Source: Candidatus Hydrogenedentota bacterium
Lineage (GTDB): Bacteria; Hydrogenedentota; Hydrogenedentia; Hydrogenedentales; SLHB01
Reading direction: 5' to 3'
DNA length: 25,417 bases
Assembly: GCA_045863295.1 (NCBI GenBank)
Contig: BTWA01000056.1
Span: 1 to 25,417 of the forward strand
Shown in pieces: positions 637-11,213 of the stretch. Positions within the stretch are counted from its first letter, which is position 1. Every line of letters begins with the position of its first letter. Both the position numbers and the translations under genes were made by a program. The notes below the pieces were generated by a model. That model searched no databases. It saw nothing but the letters and a program-made list of their open reading frames with translations, and was not told the DNA's origin.

Positions 637-1713
637 TCAGAGAATTTGTTTGGTTGCTTTCACTCTTGCGTATACCTGTTGTCTGGTTTTCAGAATCAGG
701 TGATCGAGCGAGCGTCTGGTTATGAGGGCGTTCAAGGTTTCTTCGCCTCCCGCGGAGAGCCGGATCAGAACTTGTCCGTGATCATCGGGTTCTATTGCCT
801 CGATGGTAAGCAGGAGTTGGTTGATGAGGCTGGAGTTGGGTTCGTGGCTGAGGGCGATGCTCACGTCGTGCGGGTCCACCCACAAATTCGCTTCCGCGCC
901 GACTGGCAGATCCACGGCCTTTGTCCAGAACGATCCGATGCCGGTATCCAACCGTGAAAGGCGGTAGTTATCGTCGTGTTCCGCGACTCGCGCGCGAAGG
1001 ATGACGGAATCCCGCAAGGCAGGATCCATCGAACCGGCCGCCACCTCATGGGCCACTTTGTGGGGACTTCCGATGGCGACGATGCGGCCTTCGCGAATGC
1101 AGACCATGGTGCGTGCGATCTGAAGGACTTCATTTAGCGTGTGGCTGACGTACAGGCATGGAATTTTCAATTCGCGGAGGATGCGCATCAGGTACGGGAG
1201 GATTTCACGGCGGCTTGATTCGTCCAAGGCCGAGAGGGGTTCGTCCATGAGAAGTAATTTGGGACTTGTCAGGATGGCCCGTGCGATAGCGACGCGTTGG
1301 CGTTCGCCGCCGGAGAGTCCAGCAGGCATGCGATTCAGGAGGGGTTCCAGGCCGAGCCAAGCCACCGCCTGTTCGCAGGGAATCACCCGATCCGCCGCGG
1401 GAACCCGCTTCCATCCGTACTGCAAATTTCCTATCACGGAAAGATGCGGAAACAGGCTGGGCTCTTGAAAGACATAGCCCACCGGCCTTCGATGTGGAGG
1501 AAGACATATGCGGTTGTCGTGCCAGAGATCGCCATTGACAGAAATGTGTGCGCTGTCGGGCCGGACCAGGCCTGTAATACATCGGAGCAGCGTGGTTTTT
1601 CCCGAGCCGGACGGACCAAAAAGACTGGTAACGCCCTGCGCCGGCACTTCGAATGCCGTGTCCAGCACGAATGACCCTTGCGCGTGTTTGATGCGTATCT
1701 GGATGGTGCTCAT
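637..1713 (-). CDS. modC: Molybdate ABC transporter ATP-binding protein
   Basis: Walker A GPSGSGKT, GYVFQE, signature LSGGERQRVAIARA, Walker B LLLMDEP, C-terminal TOBE/Mop-like region ending VYARVKA; 4-bp overlap with modB. Confidence 0.95.
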   Translation of the reverse strand: MSTIQIRIKHAQGSFVLDTAFEVPAQGVTSLFGPSGSGKTTLLRCITGLVRPDSAHISVNGDLWHDNRICLPPHRRPVGYVFQEPSLFPHLSVIGNLQYGWKRVPAADRVIPCEQAVAWLGLEPLLNRMPAGLSGGERQRVAIARAILTSPKLLLMDEPLSALDESSRREILPYLMRILRELKIPCLYVSHTLNEVLQIARTMVCIREGRIVAIGSPHKVAHEVAAGSMDPALRDSVILRARVAEHDDNYRLSRLDTGIGSFWTKAVDLPVGAEANLWVDPHDVSIALSHEPNSSLINQLLLTIEAIEPDDHGQVLIRLSAGGEETLNALITRRSLDHLILKTRQQVYARVKATKQIL

Positions 1714-2378
1714 AGGCCCAAGGGGTCCGGCTTTCGGTTGAAGGCATAGACCGCGAACAATGTGACGAACGAAAACAGCAGCAATCCGGCGGACAAGATG
1801 TGCGCGTTTCGGTATTGCAGCAGTTCGACGTAATCATAGATGGCGATCGACACTACGCGGGTCCTGCCCGGGATGTTGCCGCCGATCATCAGGACGACGC
1901 CGAATTCGCCCACGGTGTGAGCAAAGCCGAGCGTGGCGGCGGTAAGAAATCCGCGGCGCGCCAGCGGCAGTGTGACGGAAACGAAACGGTCGATTGCGTT
2001 GGCCCGAAGCGTGGCGGCCACTTCCAAAGGCCGGTTGCCGATTGAGGCGAACGCATTTTGAAGTGGTTGAACGACGAATGGCAGCGAATACAGAACCGAG
2101 CCGATAACAAGCCCTGCAAAAGAGAAGACGAGCCGGTCACCGCCCATGTTCTCCCAAGGCCCACCGAAAATGCCGCGGGGTCCCAGGCATACGAGCAAGT
2201 AGAATCCGAGGACGGTGGGCGGCAGTACGAGCGGCAAGGCTACGACCGCTTCGACGGCGGTGCGAAGGAGTGAGCGGCCCCGTGCGAGCCACCATGCCAG
2301 TGGGACACCGATAAGCATGAGCACGAGCACGGTGGTCAAGGCGAGTTGAATGGTCAATGCGACAGGTTGCCAGTCCAC
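1710..2378 (-). CDS. modB: Molybdate ABC transporter permease
   Basis: Hydrophobic; ALPLVLPPTVLGFYLL, FAHTVGEFGVVLMIGGNIPGRT motifs typical of ModB; GTG start. Confidence 0.95.
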   Translation of the reverse strand: MDWQPVALTIQLALTTVLVLMLIGVPLAWWLARGRSLLRTAVEAVVALPLVLPPTVLGFYLLVCLGPRGIFGGPWENMGGDRLVFSFAGLVIGSVLYSLPFVVQPLQNAFASIGNRPLEVAATLRANAIDRFVSVTLPLARRGFLTAATLGFAHTVGEFGVVLMIGGNIPGRTRVVSIAIYDYVELLQYRNAHILSAGLLLFSFVTLFAVYAFNRKPDPLGL

Positions 2379-2383
2379 GCGGG

Positions 2384-3226
2384 TTATCCGGGGGTTGGGG
2401 TTGCCGATGATTCCTTGGGCGGTCCGGGCACAGCATAGCCGGATTCGCGGATGATTTCACGGGCGTCTGGCGATTGGAGGAATTCGAGGAATGCGGCCGC
2501 TCCCGGGTGCGATTCGGCGGTGGTCAACAACACGGCCTGCTGCAGGATGGGCGCGTGGAATTCGCTGGGCACTTCGCGATATTCACCCTGCGGTTTATCC
2601 ATGACCTGGGACTTGGCGACAAATCCAATTTCCGCGGCACCGGTGATGACAAATTGGAAGGCTTGCGCGATGCTTTCGCCTTTGACGAGTTTTGGAGTCA
2701 CTGCATCGGAGAGCTGGAGATGATCCAACACTTGCATCGCCGCAAGGCCATACGGAGCCAAGTCCGGATTTGCGATGGCGATGTGTCTTATATCGTTTCT
2801 CCGCAGGACGTCCATACCGGTTTCAGGCCATGCCGCCAGCGCGTGGCCGTAGAGTACCAGTGTGCCCATGGCATAGTTGAAACGGGAACCCGCTACCGCA
2901 AGTTTCCTCTCTTCAAGCCACTGGGCATGTTTCTCGTCGGCTGACAGGAAGATGTGAAACGGCGCGCCGTTTTCGATCTGGGCGTACAGTTTGCCGGTAG
3001 AGCCGCTACTCGTGTCGACGGCGTAACCGGTTTTCGCGGTGAAGGTTGCGGCAATGTCGGCTTGGGGTCCCAGGAAATTGGCTGCGACGGCTACACGCAC
3101 GGGCCACTTGCCGGATACGGGTCTGTCCTGGATGCCGGTTTCATTCTTGCACGACGAAACCAGAGCAAGTGCTGACGAGCATAGGAGCAGGCGAACAACG
3201 ATGCGGCGCAATCGCCTAGGCGACAT
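2384..3226 (-). CDS. modA: Molybdate ABC transporter substrate-binding lipoprotein
   Basis: VAVAAN, SSGSTGKLYAQIENGAPFHIFLSAD, IAIANPDLAPYG motifs; lipobox-like VSSC; start may instead be 3247. Confidence 0.93.
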   Translation of the reverse strand: MSPRRLRRIVVRLLLCSSALALVSSCKNETGIQDRPVSGKWPVRVAVAANFLGPQADIAATFTAKTGYAVDTSSGSTGKLYAQIENGAPFHIFLSADEKHAQWLEERKLAVAGSRFNYAMGTLVLYGHALAAWPETGMDVLRRNDIRHIAIANPDLAPYGLAAMQVLDHLQLSDAVTPKLVKGESIAQAFQFVITGAAEIGFVAKSQVMDKPQGEYREVPSEFHAPILQQAVLLTTAESHPGAAAFLEFLQSPDAREIIRESGYAVPGPPKESSATPTPG

Positions 3227-3707
3227 AGTCGAAACCGATCCGCTCATAGATGCGGCGGGCCGGCGTGTTGGCTTCGTTGACCATAAGAATCAGGTCTTCG
3301 TATCCGTCTTTCAACAGCGAATTGATGCTTTTCTTGAGCAGGAAGGTGCCCATTCCTTTGTTCATGTATTTGGGATGGGTCATAGAGAAGGCCACTTGGG
3401 GGCACCCATCTTGGGCGCTCCAAGTGACGAGGGAGGCGCACACGGCGCGGGAATCCTGCATGATGATGAATGAGGCGCGGCGCAACAATTTGCCGTACTT
3501 GCCCATGAGAATCTGGGTCATCTCGGAGATGGACGTCTGGAGCGAGTCGTAGTCCTGCGTTTCCTTTGATTCATTAAAGGATTCCAAGAGCAACATGCCG
3601 AGGTGGTCGACATCGTCGAGTATGACGGTGCGCGACGGCCACATCTTTTCTTTGTTGTAGGCCTGATGCACCATCTTGAAGCGCATCTTCATGCGATTGG
3701 CTGGCAT
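3216..3707 (-). CDS. GNAT-family N-acetyltransferase
   Basis: Motif A THPKYMNKGMGTFLL and motif B VNEANTPARRIYERIGF; GAGG/AGGAG RBS; overlaps modA start. Confidence 0.88.
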   Translation of the reverse strand: MPANRMKMRFKMVHQAYNKEKMWPSRTVILDDVDHLGMLLLESFNESKETQDYDSLQTSISEMTQILMGKYGKLLRRASFIIMQDSRAVCASLVTWSAQDGCPQVAFSMTHPKYMNKGMGTFLLKKSINSLLKDGYEDLILMVNEANTPARRIYERIGFDYVA

Positions 3708-3743
3708 TTCCTCGAAACTCCTAAATCGGGGTCACGCCGTACT

Positions 3744-5075
3744 TTACACGATACGAAACGAATCAACAAGCGTGCACCGGCGTTCGCGGGTAAAATGGAT
3801 GGCCGTGGTCATGCCTTCGCCGGTTGGACTGGCGATGGTAAACGAGGTGTAGCCCTCGCCTCCCATGCCGAGTCCGGCATAGTTGGGGCCGTTCTTGATG
3901 AAGATGGAACAGTTTATCCGCCGTGCCATGCTGCTCAGGCGGCCGATGTGAAAAGAATGCATGCTGGCTGTGTGACGGCGGCCACCTTCGTAGGCGACGC
4001 CCAAGTCGATGGCGTCTTCGGCGGTTGACGCGCGCACGATGGGCATGACGGGCAGGAGTTGCTCTGTCCAGGCCAGGGGATGGTCCGGAGCTACTTCGAC
4101 GATCGCGAGGCGAGTGGAATCGGGGGCGTCGATACCAATCTTTTTGAGAATCTGATTCGCATTCTTGCCGACCCAGCGCTTATCGATTACGCCCTTGCGA
4201 TCTTTCCGGGACTCGAAGATGACATTGCACAGGCGGTCGATGGCTCCCCCTGTCACTTCAATGCATTCACACTGTGTCATTTCGCGTTTGAGCTGATCGG
4301 CCACGCTTGCGACGACTACTACAACCTTTTCATCGGTGCAGATGATGTTGTTGTCCAATGAACCGCCAGCCACGATGTTTCTTGCGGCGGCGGCAATGTC
4401 GGCGGTCTCATCCACCACTGCGGGCGGATTGCCGGGACCCGCGGCAATGACTTTCTTGCCGGAGGCCATCGCTTCGCGCACCACGGCGGGACCTCCGGTT
4501 ACACACAGCAGGGCAATGCCGGGGTGATGCATGAGCGCCTTGGCCGTATCGATACTTGGATCAGAAACGGCCGAAATGAGGCAATCGGGCCCCCCTGCAT
4601 CCACGATGGCCTTGTTGAGGATGTCGACGCACCGTTGCGAGCACCCTTTGGCAGCCGGGTGCGCGTTGAATACGACGGCGTTTCCTCCGCTGACGATGGA
4701 AATGCCGTTGTTGATGACGGTTTCTGTTGGGTTTGTGGAGGGAATCACGGAACCGATGACGCCGTGAGGGGCGCGTTCCATCAGGGTGAGGCCGTGATCG
4801 CCCGTGCGCGCGCGAGGCTCCAGGATTTCGGGTCCTGGGGTTTTGACGGCCACCAGGAGATTTTTGCGAATTTTGTCTTCCGCGCGTCCCATGCCGGTTT
4901 CTTTGTACGCGGCAACGGCAAGTTCCTTGACGTTTGCCTTGGCGGCTTCGCGCATGGCATCGACAATCCGATAGCGAATATCCAGCGACAGGTCGGACAT
5001 TGCCGCGAAAGCTTGGCGCGATCGTGCGACGGTTTCATCGAGGGAGGGGTGGTCTGTTCGTGATGTGTTGCTCAC
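3744..5075 (-). CDS. CoA-acylating aldehyde dehydrogenase, EutE/PduP family (microcompartment-associated)
   Basis: ETGMGRAEDKIRKN, PSTNPTET, TGGPAVV, AGPGNPPAVVDETAD, catalytic SLDNNIICTDEK, C-terminal FTRERRCTLVDSFRIV. Confidence 0.95.
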   Translation of the reverse strand: MSNTSRTDHPSLDETVARSRQAFAAMSDLSLDIRYRIVDAMREAAKANVKELAVAAYKETGMGRAEDKIRKNLLVAVKTPGPEILEPRARTGDHGLTLMERAPHGVIGSVIPSTNPTETVINNGISIVSGGNAVVFNAHPAAKGCSQRCVDILNKAIVDAGGPDCLISAVSDPSIDTAKALMHHPGIALLCVTGGPAVVREAMASGKKVIAAGPGNPPAVVDETADIAAAARNIVAGGSLDNNIICTDEKVVVVVASVADQLKREMTQCECIEVTGGAIDRLCNVIFESRKDRKGVIDKRWVGKNANQILKKIGIDAPDSTRLAIVEVAPDHPLAWTEQLLPVMPIVRASTAEDAIDLGVAYEGGRRHTASMHSFHIGRLSSMARRINCSIFIKNGPNYAGLGMGGEGYTSFTIASPTGEGMTTAIHFTRERRCTLVDSFRIV

Positions 5076-5167
5076 GGAATTACGCGGACCTTAGTTTGTA
5101 AGATTCAGATTTGCAGCGAATGGCAAACGTTTTCCGCCACTGAAACGGACACGTCCCGATGCCGATT

Positions 5168-5455
5168 CTATTTCCGCCACTTCACTGTGCCTTCGATATC
5201 CCAGGAATCGACAATGGCCATGATGACCGCGTCGGCCGGGCGATCGCGGGTGGCTTCGGTCAGGCGGGCGGAACTGCCTGTAGCCACGAGCACTACGTCC
5301 CCCACGCCGGCGCCGACGGCATCCGTCGCCACGACGTATCCTCCGGTTTCCTTTGCGTCGGTGTCCAGCGTTTTTACGACGAGGAACTTTCCGCCTTCGA
5401 GGGTGCGTTCTTTCGCGGTCGCTACGACGCTGCCCACCACTCTGCCCAGTTGCAT
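5168..5455 (-). CDS. BMC-P pentameric vertex shell protein (EutN/CcmL family)
   Basis: MQLGRVVGSVVATAK...VATDAVGAGVGDVVLV..GSSAR...DAVIMAIVD; AGGGG RBS before ATG 5455. Confidence 0.95.
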   Translation of the reverse strand: MQLGRVVGSVVATAKERTLEGGKFLVVKTLDTDAKETGGYVVATDAVGAGVGDVVLVATGSSARLTEATRDRPADAVIMAIVDSWDIEGTVKWRK

Positions 5456-5468
5456 GAAATACCCCTGA

Positions 5469-6071
5469 TTATAGCGGCACAATACCCGTTATCGTGGCAT
5501 TCTGAATGAACACGCTCGTCTTCTGGCCCGCGGCGTTGAAGGCCTCGTGGGCGATATCCACTTGTTGGGCAACCGCCCACGCACCGACGGCTTTGGTCTT
5601 GTGCACGATGATGATTGTGTCGTCATTCGACCCCAGGATTACCTGCGTTGGGAACGTGGGATCACCTACGGCACACAAATGGAATTCCTTCACCTCATTC
5701 GCGCCGTTGTGTGAACCGCCGGCCACCTCGTCCATGGGATCACCGGAGATAAGGTTGGCCAGGGAGTAATTCAGGCCGGCAATGAAATTGCCAAAGGGTT
5801 GATTGTCCGTGAGGGTGAATTTGGTATTCGTGTTGTCGATGATAAACGCGTTCAAGTTCAAGTCAATCACGATGGTGTAGGCAACCGAGTCGCCGACTTT
5901 AAGGCCGGCAATGGCTGCGGCACCAGCGTTGTCTGTAATCTGGGTAATTGTGCCGTTTATGTTGTATTGAATCGGTTTTGGGGTGGGCGCAATGGGGCAA
6001 CCTGACCCCAATAGCAATACCAACGCCACGGCAACGACAGATACACCGCATTTGAAGCCGGTCCAGAACAT
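5469..6071 (-). CDS. Hypothetical lipoprotein, beta-rich (200 aa)
   Basis: AGGAG RBS (6079-6083) before ATG 6071; hydrophobic VSVVAVALVLLL then GSGC lipobox and a Pro-rich linker; no family recognised. Confidence 0.8.
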   Translation of the reverse strand: MFWTGFKCGVSVVAVALVLLLGSGCPIAPTPKPIQYNINGTITQITDNAGAAAIAGLKVGDSVAYTIVIDLNLNAFIIDNTNTKFTLTDNQPFGNFIAGLNYSLANLISGDPMDEVAGGSHNGANEVKEFHLCAVGDPTFPTQVILGSNDDTIIIVHKTKAVGAWAVAQQVDIAHEAFNAAGQKTSVFIQNATITGIVPL

Positions 6072-6146
6072 GATTTTACTCCTCGCCCGCGCACGCGCAC
6101 AGGCATTCCAATTTCGTGTGCAAACCGGCGTCATTGGACGCGGGTT

Positions 6147-6452
6147 CTAGCGCTTATTTTCCGCCGCCGCTTCCTTGGCTCGGCCAAGGGGCAGTGCGAC
6201 GTCCACGTTGCTGTGAGGCCTCGGGATGATATGTACGGCGATCACTTCGCCCACGGCGCGGGCACTGCGTTCACCGGCTTCGCAGGCCGCCTTCACGGCT
6301 GCGACATCGCCGCGAACCACGGCCGTCACGAATCCGCCGCCGATTTTTTCATATCCCACGAGTTCCACTTTGGCGGCTTTCACCATGGCGTCCGCCGCTT
6401 CCACCATCGCGGCAAACCCGCGCGTTTCCACCATGCCCAATGCATCGGCCAT
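6147..6452 (-). CDS. BMC-H hexameric shell protein (EutM/PduA/CcmK family)
   Basis: [12 protein letters not shown]...[21 protein letters not shown]...[11 protein letters not shown]...HIIPRPH; GGGGAG RBS. Confidence 0.97.
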
Positions 6453-6474
6453 GTGATTTCTCTCCCCTTCTACA

Positions 6475-6615
6475 TTTGAGGCGTTGCCTCGTGTCAAACT
6501 AGTTTGGCGGGCTGATGAAGCACGGGGCCTTCACCCTCTCTCCTGCTTTTCCTGTTCAGGGAGTCGCTACAACTCCGTTGCACTTGTTCGCCCAAGTAGC
6601 CTGTGAGTTATTCTA
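6475..6615 (-). promoter_or_regulatory. Putative promoter (-10 TAGAAT) and structured 5' leader or operator of the BMC-H operon
   Basis: TAGAAT at 6610-6615 (minus); hairpins at 6560-6576, 6512-6559 and 6478-6490; perfect palindrome CAAACTAGTTTG at 6495-6506. Confidence 0.4.
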
Positions 6616-6718
6616 CCGTTTGGACGCGGGCTTTGGCATTTCCCACTTACTGCCCCATTTTAAACCAACGCAGTGTAGTAGTTGCGCCATCACAATCGTC
6701 GCCCAACGAGGTTGCGCA

Positions 6719-7333
6719 TCAATCCCTGCCAGACAATCCCTGCAATGCCTTTACCGCTGCCTCACTGCCTACCACTACATCGGCCTCTTCGCCTCCGAGA
6801 TACAGGCGGCCGTAGGCGCCAAAAGGCCGGATGTCCACCAGGGTCACCCGGCTGGCTTTCTCGGCCTCGTTGGCGGCGAGCACGGCGTACAGCGCGGGTT
6901 GTGTCTCCAGAATAAACAGGGTTTGGCCCGCAAGCAACATGGAGCCGTCACGCTGCTTATTAATGATGGCGGCCTGATAGGCATCGACGTGGCGGATAAT
7001 GGTGGAGGACGCAATTTTCGGCTTTTGGCGGTCGGCCTCGGTCCAGTTCATGGCCTTGAGGACGGCATCGCCAGCCTGACGCACGTTTGCCTGGGATTCG
7101 GAGTGCACCTCGAAGGTGCCGAAGCTGCGTTCCACCACCTGAATGGCGGGGTGTACATCGGTGGCTTTGAGGGCAATGTCGAGCAGGCGGACGATTTCCA
7201 TTCCTGGGCCGACTTCAACGAACAGGCTTGCCATTCCCGCCACGGGCATGAAGCCCTGCACGGTCGACGCCATGAACGACGCCAATTGTTCCTGAAGGGA
7301 ATCCAGGACGATGTAACTGCGGAGTTCGGTCAT
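6719..7333 (-). CDS. BMC-T trimeric shell protein, CcmP/CsoS1D-like (double-stacking type)
   Basis: ELRSYIVLDSLQEQLASF, EVGPGMEI, VVERSFG.FEVH, LETQPALYAVLAANEAEKA, FGAYGRLYLGG motifs; AGGGGA RBS. Confidence 0.92.
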   Translation of the reverse strand: MTELRSYIVLDSLQEQLASFMASTVQGFMPVAGMASLFVEVGPGMEIVRLLDIALKATDVHPAIQVVERSFGTFEVHSESQANVRQAGDAVLKAMNWTEADRQKPKIASSTIIRHVDAYQAAIINKQRDGSMLLAGQTLFILETQPALYAVLAANEAEKASRVTLVDIRPFGAYGRLYLGGEEADVVVGSEAAVKALQGLSGRD

Positions 7334-7382
7334 GTGGATCCCCTAATAAAACCACCGGCTTGACGCAAAAGAAACGAGCCAC

Positions 7383-8312
7383 TTAGTAAACGGGCGTGCA
7401 CCAGTGCGCGTATCCGGGCACTTTACCCATTACGACGTCAAAATACAGGTCTTGGAGTCGCTTCGAAACGGGGCCGGGTTCGCCTGAGCCCACCACCCGG
7501 CGGTCCACCGAACGGACCGGGGCGACTTGTGCGCCGGTGCCGGTGAAGAAGAGTTCGTCACAGACATAGAGTTCGGTACGCGATATGGGCCGTTCAATCA
7601 CTTCGAGGCGGAGCGAATTGCGCGCCAACTCGATGACGGTGTTGCGGGTGATACCGACGAGGATGTCGTCGGTGGGCGGCGAGGTGATGAGTTTGCCGTC
7701 GAGGACCATGAAGAGGTTCATGGCGCTGCCTTCGGCGACGGTGCCGTTTTCGCGGAGAAAAATCGCCTCATCGAACCCGCCCAACTTGGCTTCCGTGGAG
7801 GCCAGCGAAGAATTGATATAGCTGCCGGTGCTTTTGGCACGGCTTGGAATGGAGTTATCGCCCAGGCGTCGCCAGGACGAGACCGCCACGTCCAAGCCAG
7901 ACACGGTGTCGACGTAGTCACCGAGTTTGATGATGTAGCAGCAGAAGGCGCTTTCCACGTCGTGGAGCTTGGGCCCGAGGGAACACTCGCTTTTATATCC
8001 GATGGGGCGTATGTAGACACCCTCGCGAAATCCGCTCTTCTTGACGATGTCAACGCAAATGCGCTCCATATCGTCCCGGCTTTCGGGGATGCTGATATGG
8101 AGAATATTAAAATTTCGGGCAAGCCGGTCGATGTGTTCCTTGAGGCGGAAGATCAGTACGTTATTGTCTTCGGAGCGGTACCCCCGGATGCCTTCGAAGA
8201 GGGCTGTACCGTAGTTGAAGGCGTGGGTCATGATACTGATGTTTGCTTCGCCGGAGGGGACAAACGCGCCGTTGAGATACGCATACGCGCCCGGTTCCAT
8301 TTTCTTGGCCAT
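7383..8312 (-). CDS. ilvE: Branched-chain amino acid aminotransferase (PLP fold IV)
   Basis: FNYGTALFEGIRGY, HIDRL, YIRP, PLP-lysine region AKSTGSYINS, EGSAMNLF, ILVGITR, ELFFTGTGAQVAPV. Confidence 0.93.
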   Translation of the reverse strand: MAKKMEPGAYAYLNGAFVPSGEANISIMTHAFNYGTALFEGIRGYRSEDNNVLIFRLKEHIDRLARNFNILHISIPESRDDMERICVDIVKKSGFREGVYIRPIGYKSECSLGPKLHDVESAFCCYIIKLGDYVDTVSGLDVAVSSWRRLGDNSIPSRAKSTGSYINSSLASTEAKLGGFDEAIFLRENGTVAEGSAMNLFMVLDGKLITSPPTDDILVGITRNTVIELARNSLRLEVIERPISRTELYVCDELFFTGTGAQVAPVRSVDRRVVGSGEPGPVSKRLQDLYFDVVMGKVPGYAHWCTPVY

Positions 8313-8439
8313 ATCGACTCCAGACTCCCTGGCTTAATAGTTGCCCTTCATGTTTCCGCCCATTCCCCCCGCCATGCGCACGGGATACCCGTAACCAATT
8401 GCCAATGGATGAGTTGCCCACAGTCTGAACGGAATGGAT

Positions 8440-8469
8440 ATAGTACGCTGATGGGATGGGCAGGTTCAA
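8440..8469 (-). promoter_or_regulatory. Putative sigma70 promoter for ilvE-BMC-T
   Basis: Minus strand TTGAAC (8464-8469), 18 nt, TACTAT (8440-8445). Confidence 0.4.
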
Positions 8470-8529
8470 AAATCATTTAATGTAGGCATTAGAGATGGTC
8501 ATCACAATTTGCTAACAATCACAATCCGG

Positions 8530-9879
8530 CTATTGACTGGGCGGCTTGCTCGCTCTACGTACAGCGGCGTCCAGCCCGTCGTCAACAGGAAGTTGCTCCA
8601 CAGAAAAACCCGGATTGTCTTGGCCGACGAGGAATACGGAATTCACTTCGTATGTGTTGCCGTCCACATTAAATCGAAGCGGTTGACCGTCGAATGGGTC
8701 CAATGGCACGGATTCCAGGTAATCAGGAACAAGGTCGTCGAGACCATTGGGGAGGGCGCCATGTTGCGCGCGGAACCGCTCGATGGCCAAGGTGGTCATG
8801 ACGATCCGGGAATGTGTCTCATTTCTGGCAAGCCATGAAGCGGCACTTCGACACTCGGTTGCCGCGAGTTTTCCAAACGTGCTGTGTCGGGATTTTTCAA
8901 TCTCATCGGATAACTGTTCTGTGAACCGAATCAATTCCGGCCAGGTGCCTGAATTGTGCTCAAGTACCTGCCGGTAGATGCCCATTGTCTCATTCTCGTA
9001 GATTTTGCGTTGTGTGAGTTGCCTCTCTGGTGAAAGCGATCGGTATTCCAAACGCACTTTTCCAAAAACCATCTCAAGAGTGTTTTCATTCAGAGACTGC
9101 TCAATGCTGTGAGGTATTGAACAGACACCCCAAACCATTCGCTTTTCAAAACTAATTCTATAATCGTGCGCCGCGTACAGCGCCAGAAGCTCGGCCAGCA
9201 TAACAGGGTCAAAGGTTCGCCAATTCAGTACTTCCAACACGGTATGCTTCGAGATTGCTAAACAGCGCCAACCCACGCTTTGCGTAAAGAAGTCAGGGGT
9301 GTTGAAACAGGCCATGGCAATGCGCATGGCTCACGTCTGGCTTTCCAGCACGGATGATCCATCACCCGCTACACTGGCATAACGCGTGTTTAACCCGTCC
9401 AGTTTCGCGAGCAGCCATAATTCCTTGAGCGGTTGCGGCGGAGTTAAATTAGCGATATTAAAGTGTATTTTTGGTTTCGCGTCGCCCGCTCTCAAAAGTT
9501 CCACGACTTGGGAACATGACCCCAAAAAAGTACCTGCGCTTTTGATCTATTCGTCAGGATACGGCAAATCACGCTGGGAACCTTTCAGCAATTCATCCAA
9601 TGCATATAGACGCTTGCCAGAAGGATCGATCGATTGAAGCAATTTAAGCGCGTCCAGATACAACGGAGCCGCGTTGTCTTCGAGGGAAATAACGCCGTAC
9701 CACGACTGCAATTCCTCTAATGTGACGGGGTATCCCAACGCCTGGATCTCATGTCTCGTGGATTCGAGTTCGGCTACCACCTCGCGAAAAGACGGGCTGC
9801 AACCGACTGCGACCGCAATCCAAACGGGTACTGTCCAACATTGAAGAAAGTCCATTATTCGTCGCAGGTTTCTTGTCAT
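8530..9879 (-). pseudogene. Interrupted lipoprotein paralogue of 9876..11213 with two in-frame stops
   Basis: ORFs 9547..9879, 9331..9525 and 8530..9327 share one frame, separated by TAG 9547-9549 and TGA 9331-9333. Joined length is 449 codons; shares GYPxTLEEL..WY...NAA..Y and LVPxY...VPxDPFD..PL motifs with its neighbour; lipobox AVGC. Confidence 0.85.
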
Positions 9880-11213
9880 CGCAACACACGGAACGGGAAG
9901 TCGCCTTTAACGACTTCCGCACTGTGGTCAAAGTCGACTCCCCCCTCATCGGCCTTGTCCATGTACACAGAGTACACCACGTACCCCACAGGCAATCGTT
10001 TGTACTTCAACGGTTTGTCATCAAAGGGGTCTTTGGGAACGGCCTGGAAGTACTCGGGAACCATTTCCAGCAGGTCCACGGGGAGGCGGTTGCGTTTGTT
10101 GCGGAATTGTTCGATGGATGTGGCAATGGCCGCCGTACGGTTTGCGGCGGCGTCGCGGGCGAAGGCGGCGACGGAGCGGGTAATCATGTCGGCAATCGAT
10201 CCTGCCATCAGACTATTCTCTGACCGGAGGGCCAGATCGACCTGTCCTCCCGCATCGAGAATTTCGGGCCAGGATTTGGATTTCGCGTTGAGAATGGGGT
10301 CGAAAGCACGGAGATACGCGATTTCTTCCTCAAGAAGCGACTGATTTTCACTTGCCCTGGCTGCATTCATCACTGACTGTTTCAGGCTTTCTGAAACGAA
10401 AAGATTCTCGTGTGCTTCTACGTCGAGTTCTCCCGTATAGATCGCATGTATATTGGACGCTCCAAATATACGCTCGCCGACGTAAGCGCGTTCGTACGAT
10501 TCTTTCGTTTCCGTGTCACGATGAATTTTCCGTAGTTCGACAAGCGCAGTATCCGGTATGGCATAGCGGCTCATGGTTTCTTGCAGGTTTGTGAAGGCAA
10601 CTTGCCGGACAGCGATCCATACAAGTTGGGAGATGAGCGTAGGTTCCATGGCAAGCGAATCGGCGACGGCGAAGATTTGGCGGTGATATTCGGTGTAGGC
10701 GTCGAAGTCGCCGGCGGCGGCGGACTGGTAAGCGGCCAATGACACCAAGCGTCCCGCACTTCGGGCGGTGCCCAGGTGGGGGAATTCGACGATGAAGCCC
10801 TTATTCAAATCGATGGGATAACGCGATTTCGACTTTGCGGAGGCTACTTTGATTTTCTCCAACGGGGCGGCGGATTGATCCAGGTGGCCTTTGACTTCCG
10901 CCAGCCAATCTTCGGGGAATGGCACTCCGCGCGGCAAAGAATCGGGGCGCAACACCAGCGATTCCAGTTTGTTGCCGCCGGGATCGGTACCTTCCATGAG
11001 TTCAAACGCTGCGATGTAGTCGACGGCGGCATTTTCGGGGTCGGGGACAGGGGCATACCAGGCGTTCAACTCCTCCAAGGTAGCCGGGTAACCCGCGGAT
11101 CTGATTTCTTGGTGGAGCTGTTCCAGGCCGACCGCGGCCGGGGATCCGCTCTTGGAACAAGAGACTGTGAGCATCGCTCCGAGAACTGCGGCAGACACAA
11201 ACGTCATTTTCAT
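9876..11213 (-). CDS. Uncharacterised helical lipoprotein with GspG/pseudopilin-like C-terminal motif
   Basis: Signal with lipobox-like TVSC; AAGGA RBS; C-terminal IEQFRNKRNRLP.DL.EMVPEYFQAVPKDPFDDKPLKY...YVVYSV. Confidence 0.8.
   Translation of the reverse strand: MKMTFVSAAVLGAMLTVSCSKSGSPAAVGLEQLHQEIRSAGYPATLEELNAWYAPVPDPENAAVDYIAAFELMEGTDPGGNKLESLVLRPDSLPRGVPFPEDWLAEVKGHLDQSAAPLEKIKVASAKSKSRYPIDLNKGFIVEFPHLGTARSAGRLVSLAAYQSAAAGDFDAYTEYHRQIFAVADSLAMEPTLISQLVWIAVRQVAFTNLQETMSRYAIPDTALVELRKIHRDTETKESYERAYVGERIFGASNIHAIYTGELDVEAHENLFVSESLKQSVMNAARASENQSLLEEEIAYLRAFDPILNAKSKSWPEILDAGGQVDLALRSENSLMAGSIADMITRSVAAFARDAAANRTAAIATSIEQFRNKRNRLPVDLLEMVPEYFQAVPKDPFDDKPLKYKRLPVGYVVYSVYMDKADEGGVDFDHSAEVVKGDFPFRVLR

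Follow-up and report, generated by a model that had tools for sequence, protein, structure and literature searches.

A probable main-locus half of a split bacterial microcompartment locus on a Candidatus Hydrogenedentota contig

Contig BTWA01000056.1 of a Candidatus Hydrogenedentota bacterium (assembly GCA_045863295.1), analyzed here over its full 25,417 nucleotides and called the window below, carries genes for the shell of a bacterial microcompartment (BMC) together with a gene for a coenzyme A (CoA)-acylating aldehyde dehydrogenase (AldDH). They belong to a cluster of seven co-oriented genes on the minus strand with intergenic distances of -32 to 266 nt, and a listing of open reading frames (ORFs) with Pfam, NCBIfam and PDB searches found all seven where the original prediction, made from the letters of the sequence, had placed them. 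Comparison with related loci suggests that the cluster is probably the main-locus half of a metabolosome locus that has been split. The genes, from the upstream end, and the transporter genes that follow them are:

7383-8312, minus strand: ilvE, branched-chain amino acid aminotransferase, 309 aa (PF01063, E-value 1.3e-45)
6719-7333, minus strand: BMC-T (BMC-Tdp, CcmP/CsoS1D class), 204 aa (PDB match to CcmP, 5lsr)
6147-6452 (ORF to 6497), minus strand: BMC-H hexamer protein, 101 aa from ATG 6452 (PF00936, 1.4e-29)
5469-6134, minus strand: exported protein, 221 aa, or 200 aa from ATG 6071, between BMC-H and BMC-P
5168-5455 (ORF to 5482), minus strand: BMC-P pentamer protein, 95 aa from ATG 5455 (PF03319, 3.8e-29)
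3744-5075, minus strand: CoA-acylating AldDH of the EutE/PduP type, 443 aa from GTG 5075 (PF00171)
3216-3707, minus strand: GNAT acetyltransferase, 163 aa (PF00583, PF08445)
637-3247, minus strand: modABC molybdate transporter genes (modA, TIGR01256, 197 bits; ABC_tran with TOBE; BPD_transp_1)

The BMC cluster ends at the modABC genes, which do not belong to it.

Eighty related loci, designated by L numbers, were collected by an AldDH scan of genome contigs and mapped by tblastn, and 273 plus-strand ORFs from 21 of them were scanned with Pfam. The closest AldDH proteins, with 65-76% identity, come from metagenome-assembled genomes (MAGs) of Candidatus Hydrogenedentota. A maximum-likelihood tree was made of 31 AldDHs out of 80 sequences, one from the window and 79 from other loci. 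It includes the window sequence, the whole set of 11 other full-length Hydrogenedentota-clade sequences, and 19 more selected by hand for coverage of the phyla; the truncated L013 was dropped. In this tree the window falls within a Hydrogenedentota clade of 12 rows with a support of 100 in the Shimodaira-Hasegawa-like approximate likelihood ratio test (SH-aLRT). The backbone shared across the related loci is BMC-Tdp, BMC-H, BMC-P, AldDH, BMC-Ts, BMC-P and BMC-P. Where at least 2.6 kb is available upstream of the AldDH (65 loci), BMC-Tdp, BMC-H and BMC-P occur in this order in 53, only BMC-H and BMC-P in 4, and neither BMC-H nor the full upstream set in 8. Where at least 2.5 kb is available downstream (63 loci), a tandem-domain BMC-Ts followed by BMC-P is found in 51 and two or more BMC-P in 52; shell genes are missing downstream in 9 (L004, L011, L037, L061, L066, L070, L076, L077, and L078). 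Further upstream, 57 loci offer at least 4.6 kb of sequence, and in 35 of these, from Chloroflexota, Gemmatimonadota and Acidobacteriota, RpiB and DeoC precede the trimer gene.

The shell proteins of the window fit the first part of this backbone. Residues 2-204 of BMC-T align with residues 3-205 of CcmP (5lsr, 1.3e-71), an end-to-end match which bears out the earlier assignment of the trimer to the CcmP/CsoS1D class; the PDB search also returned H. ochraceum HO-5816 (1.9e-64) and CsoS1D (1.2e-49), and the NCBIfam score for CcmP is 263 bits, under the equivalog cut-off of 340. With its approximately 200 aa and two permuted BMC domains the protein belongs to the BMC-Tdp class, and two of its trimers are predicted to stack. 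In the alignment, E68-R69 stand opposite the E-R pair of CcmP, which has a presumed role in gating. Identity to the Hydrogenedentota orthologues is 75-85% for BMC-T and 80-91% for BMC-H, which scores 114 bits with the EutM model and likely starts at 6452, giving 101 aa as in the relatives. The translation of BMC-H contains KAAK and PRPH, described as standard interface motifs (PMC8217296, Supplementary Data 2). BMC-P likely starts at ATG 5455, because the PF03319 domain begins at residue 10 of the ORF. It is 68-82% identical to its Hydrogenedentota orthologues and only 33-48% identical to the two BMC-P encoded behind the AldDH in relatives. It corresponds to the first member of the BMC-P triplet that relatives have. 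Of the marks of a metabolosome, shell genes of both PF00936 and PF03319 are therefore present in one locus.

The AldDH scores 605.6 bits with NCBIfam PRK15398 (cut-off 403; profile positions 36-465 of 465) and matches AldDH structures from BMCs (PDB 5jfl, 1.5e-109; 4c3s, 5.2e-109), as befits an enzyme of the EutE/PduP type. All residues invariant across 14 aligned AldDHs are retained, including the invariant Cys246. The alignment shows, however, that the protein starts at the catalytic domain: the N-terminal helix is missing, and there is no encapsulation peptide (EP). The recorded protein for this gene (P0001, 418 aa) begins at ATG 5000. GTG 5075 is the likelier start, given that relatives conserve residues lying ahead of that ATG; four codons before the GTG there is an in-frame TAA. 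All outgroup AldDHs examined carry an N-terminal amphipathic helix and a linker, for example, DDARIDAIIQEVMAEL, and a long N-terminus was found in 58 of the 80 sequences overall, while the anchor motif of this survey failed in 11 other sequences and L017 is cut by the contig end. Within the Hydrogenedentota clade the helix is retained in L009 and L012, and the AldDH is EP-less in 10 of the 12 members (the window, L001-L005, L007, L008, L010, and L011). The lack of the EP is a derived feature of these AldDHs. The other candidate cargo proteins of the window, ilvE and GNAT, are likewise without extension, so that another mark of a metabolosome, an EP on a cargo protein, is not found on any of the three.

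A group of Anaerolineae AldDHs (L061, L062, L066, L076, L077, and L078), 53-55% identical to that of the window, lack shell genes in the flanking sequence retrieved, and the examined ones keep an N-terminal EP-like helix, for example, LSENEINAIITRVMRDIG, which suggests that the BMC loci of these genomes are fragmented.

In agreement with the original prediction, the window contains no aldolase, DERA, RPI, phosphotransacylase (PTAC) or alcohol dehydrogenase. Pfam gave no match to PF00596, PF01791, PF02502, PF06130 or PF00465 in its 27 largest ORFs, and tblastn queries taken from relatives for RpiB, DeoC, class II aldolase, PTAC, AckA and PduS found nothing in it; queries with the relatives' BMC-Ts and their BMC-P numbers two and three were equally without a match. 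The statement that metabolosomes usually encode an aldehyde-generating signature enzyme overstated how atypical the locus is. Indeed, many catalogued AldDH loci are without an obvious one, namely ACI, FRAG1-7, HO, MIC2-7 and MUF2-3, and main loci composed of shell genes and AldDH only are already catalogued as HO type I and MIC7 (PMC8217296). A locus of shell and AldDH therefore falls in a known category.

What follows the AldDH in the relatives accounts for what is missing here. In seven of the nine downstream-informative Hydrogenedentota loci (L002, L003, L007, L008, L009, L010, and L012), the AldDH is followed by BMC-Ts, BMC-P, BMC-P and a class II aldolase of PF00596; in L001 and L005 the contig runs as far as BMC-Ts and then ends. 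These aldolases are approximately 40 residues longer than the Pfam domain. The extension consists of a Cys-rich, poorly conserved linker and a conserved C-terminal amphipathic helix, LDxVxxETLxxLG, which resembles the C-terminal EP reported for SPU5 aldolases (PMC8217296, Supplementary Data 2; PMC11585597). Neither DERA (PF01791) nor RPI (PF02502) occurs in the window or in any of the 12 Hydrogenedentota-clade loci, and no PTAC or alcohol dehydrogenase was found in the Hydrogenedentota loci scanned.

Behind the aldolase, six of the Hydrogenedentota loci (L009:13526-14599, L002, L003, L007, L008, and L012) encode a conserved protein of 357-364 aa. It has a zinc ribbon (CPxC...CRxC) at its N-terminus and also contains an invariant GRPRDE stretch, a linker and a hydrophobic segment resembling a membrane helix; no family match was obtained. 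A weak PfkB match of the 357-aa member (E 7.8e-4) had suggested a sugar kinase, an idea that was dropped in view of the zinc ribbon, linker and hydrophobic segment in the alignment of the six sequences.

In the window, as in L004, the BMC cluster stops directly behind the AldDH. The next genes are GNAT and modABC in the window, and a gene of no assigned function and BlaI/BlaR in L004. In the tree, L004 has the unsplit L003 as its sister (SH-aLRT 99), apart from the window; the operon has therefore been broken at this point at least twice, independently. A 2.5-kb insert lies at the same AldDH junction in L003. Since the missing aldolase and shell genes stand directly behind the AldDH in most relatives, the window looks like a split locus and a new kind of organelle is not called for. 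Probably, then, what the window carries is one half, the main locus, of a split metabolosome locus, a lineage-specific variant within the SPU3/SPU5/HO group. The earlier suggestion of a satellite of a main locus elsewhere came close, with the terms reversed: it is the window that would be the main half, and the missing part comprises BMC-Ts, two BMC-P and the aldolase.

As the working of such a split system may be pictured, BMC-H, BMC-P and the gated CcmP-type trimer would form the shell, and the large BMC-Tdp pore would pass a sugar phosphate. Inside, an EP-tagged class II aldolase encoded elsewhere in the genome would cleave a ketose phosphate to dihydroxyacetone phosphate (DHAP) and a short aldehyde, which the AldDH would oxidize to an acyl-CoA. 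As there is no PTAC or alcohol dehydrogenase in the window or the scanned related loci, the core set is incomplete, a trait shared with the HO and MIC types.

Several points weigh against the split-locus reading. From the window, which is one whole contig of the genome, loss of the second half and its relocation look the same. Two of the nine downstream-informative loci, L004 and L011, are also without it, and an AldDH with no adjacent aldolase may be a stable state. The AldDH has no EP to account for its packaging, which is true of 10 of the 12 clade members, among them some with complete loci. The aldolase of the relatives exceeds no NCBIfam equivalog cut-off, the best being 3-oxo-tetronate 4-phosphate decarboxylase with 110.7 bits against 250, and its substrate is therefore a guess. 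Finally, ilvE is tightly linked to the shell genes on the same strand in seven of eight loci, so that a role in the pathway is possible for it.

Among the loci mapped, that linkage is confined to the Hydrogenedentota. ilvE precedes the trimer gene in L001, L003, L004, L005, L008, L009 and L012, with 71-76% identity, L010 being the exception among the eight informative loci, and it is absent from this position in the other loci. The gap to the next gene varies from 3 to 267 nt across loci (49 nt to BMC-T in the window), and the genes upstream of ilvE are not conserved. In the sister loci L003 (7187-7618) and L004 (7487-7906), a small bPH-domain gene (PF03703) sits between ilvE and BMC-T with gaps of 3-71 nt. 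The protein exceeds the cut-offs of PRK06606 (359.4 bits against 279) and TIGR01122 (321.8 against 245.55), and its nearest structures are branched-chain aminotransferases (BCATs; 5ce8, 4.4e-69; E. coli 1i1k, 3.7e-61). An (R)-amine transaminase that makes an aldehyde was considered and rejected on the grounds of these BCAT equivalog scores and structure matches of 1e-61 to 1e-69; matches to (R)-amine transaminases and D-amino-acid transaminases reach only about 1e-24. Having neither an N- nor a C-terminal extension, ilvE is most likely a cytosolic housekeeping BCAT and probably a co-transcribed conserved neighbor.

The other two partners named by the original prediction, which had allowed for an unclassified organelle with unusual partner enzymes, fare differently. 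Gene order in relatives, the check proposed for that idea, keeps ilvE in place as just described, while GNAT and the putative lipoprotein are syntenic in no relative; neither has a homologue in the 80 related loci, and for these two the idea is not supported. The GNAT gene lies 36 nt after the AldDH gene, where relatives have BMC-Ts, and overlaps the modA ORF by 32 nt. It has 4 homologues only, with 40-61% identity, among 5.8 billion proteins, and it is not related to the GNAT that L012 encodes between BMC-H and BMC-P. GNAT is specific to the lineage of the window and, like the exported protein, probably an insertion that has nothing to do with the organelle.

The supposed lipoprotein gene exists. 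Its signal peptide, however, carries only a near-match to a lipobox, LGSGC, and most of the remote relatives of the protein belong to the PEP-CTERM kind. The 221-aa ORF belongs to no Pfam or NCBIfam family and gave no close homologue in a word-indexed search; phmmer found 86 remote relatives. Most of the 36 that were aligned begin with a signal peptide, and 23 of the 36 end in PEP-CTERM. The window protein has no such tail, and two other tail-less relatives (P0129 and P0160) have canonical lipoboxes. An AlphaFold2 model is all-beta with a predicted local distance difference test (pLDDT) score of 90, and a fold search with it found no PDB match at E <= 0.001. As the protein is exported, it is neither cargo nor shell; a role as cargo or scaffold was set aside because of the signal peptide and the PEP-CTERM ends of its relatives.

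Proteases are found among the inserts of related operons. A CPBP intramembrane protease, Rce1-like, is encoded between BMC-P and AldDH in L001 (9165-9983), L002 (975-1994), L003 (9184-9981) and L005 (4178-4996), with weak matches to the CTERM-sorting proteases MrtS, MrtJ and pepcterm_CAAX; the insert of the window itself belongs to a family of mostly PEP-CTERM proteins. Between its two later BMC-P, L008 encodes an M48 peptidase whose N-terminal domain is of the CAAX-protease type (9142-10839), and an MNT/HepT pair is inserted in the L004 operon.

A rather unlikely alternative is that the system is reduced or a relic, in which the second half was lost and either a minimal shell of one H, one P and one T remains or the whole is decaying, with the AldDH in the cytosol. 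It would fit that no sequence behind the AldDH is similar to the missing genes, that unrelated genes are inserted in the operon, that the AldDH has no EP, and that L004 and L011 show the same absence. The five conserved genes are, however, intact and of full length, with 65-91% identity to their orthologues, and the AldDH keeps its invariant residues including Cys246. Moreover, an EP-less AldDH occurs in the complete loci L002, L003, L007, L008 and L010, and EP loss is therefore no sign of decay. Split loci with satellites are also common in the related HO type (PMC8217296).

A comparison with the catalogued types places the split locus among several of them. As in type I of the HO (Haliangium ochraceum) BMCs, the main locus of the window consists of T, H, P and AldDH with no further BMC enzyme and no obvious aldehyde-generating enzyme, PTAC or alcohol dehydrogenase, and the contrast of the window and L004 with the other Hydrogenedentota loci mirrors that of HO type I with HO type II (PMC8217296). 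Unlike the window, HO type I always has an N-terminal EP on the AldDH; the BMC-Tdp of the HO main locus is reported to fall in the CsoS1D clade, and by E-value the window trimer is nearer CcmP (1.3e-71 against 1.2e-49); and HO is found mostly in Deltaproteobacteria and has no ilvE (PMC8217296). The order of the relatives, with its CcmP-like BMC-Tdp, is that of the sugar-phosphate-utilization type SPU3, and the 35 loci that also have RpiB and DeoC ahead of the trimer gene show the SPU3 arrangement (PMC8217296; PMC11585597), with AldDH identities of 52-57%. The SPU3 shell set is complete in the Hydrogenedentota relatives, while the window has only H, one P and the CcmP-like Tdp. In Hydrogenedentota, DERA and RPI are replaced in position by ilvE and a class II aldolase stands behind the BMC-P pair, and the AldDH of SPU3 has an N-terminal EP. 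SPU5 resembles the Hydrogenedentota loci in combining AldDH with a PF00596 aldolase bearing a C-terminal EP, in the absence of RPI (PMC8217296), and differs in its CsoS1D-like BMC-Tdp (PMC11585597). MIC7 differs in having its Tdp on a satellite, and the AldDHs of SPU5 and MIC7 both carry an N-terminal EP, unlike that of the window (PMC8217296). Four of the related loci from Latescibacterota and Krumholzibacteriia (L006, L044, L054, and L071) look like the SPU5/MIC7 kind.

The Hydrogenedentota loci could also represent an uncatalogued metabolosome subtype, of which the window would be the core module: an SPU3-type shell, an EP-tagged aldolase replacing DERA and RPI, an EP-less AldDH packaged otherwise (riding on the aldolase, for instance), and a fixed ilvE linking the organelle to amino-acid or methionine-salvage metabolism. 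This is unlikely. The available portions of the 2021 catalogue name Hydrogenedentes only under FRAG6 and FRAG7 (PMC8217296), and no description of this locus was found in passages of PMC12555021 and PMC3909097 or in the titles and opening abstract lines of other papers on Hydrogenedentes or Hydrogenedentota and microcompartments.

GNATs consume acyl-CoA, and it might be imagined that the organelle is self-contained, with ilvE feeding or draining the pathway and GNAT using the acyl-CoA of the AldDH and recycling CoA in place of PTAC. The tight packing on one strand, the synteny of ilvE in seven of eight loci while the genes upstream of it vary, the second, unrelated GNAT inserted in L012, and one each of H, P and Tdp, the minimal shell set for MIC2 (PMC8217296), speak for this, but it is quite improbable: ilvE is a canonical BCAT without extension, and branched-chain amino acids are transaminated to keto acids rather than to aldehydes; GNAT has no extension, only 4 homologues and none in the 80 loci; and the window has no decarboxylase or other aldehyde-forming enzyme.

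On the split-locus reading, an enzyme-poor BMC locus is accounted for by comparison with relatives, as an operon broken at a junction that has been broken more than once, and the case advises caution in taking single MAG contigs for complete organelle loci. It also puts on record a Hydrogenedentota branch of the SPU3/SPU5/HO group, distinctive in its EP-less AldDH and its conserved ilvE neighbor. EP-less cargo within a family that uses EPs bears on how cargo is recruited to shells.

A scan of 2300-9500 gave promoter and terminator counts at or below the shuffled expectation, and the Rfam search and the tRNA scan found no match. Upstream of ilvE, three minus-strand ORFs, 8530-9327 (265 aa), 9547-9879 (110 aa) and 9876-11213 (445 aa), match no Pfam or NCBIfam family. 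The 110-aa ORF is 37% identical to the N-terminal part of the adjacent 445-aa protein (E 3e-17) and the 265-aa ORF 26% identical to its C-terminal part (E 1e-18); by these similarities the two look like a split or broken paralogue of their neighbor. At the other end of the window, a tandem repeat of a 161-bp unit (255-557; 1.9 copies, 85% matches) lies within the first kilobase of the contig, which is rich in G (GC skew 0.28).

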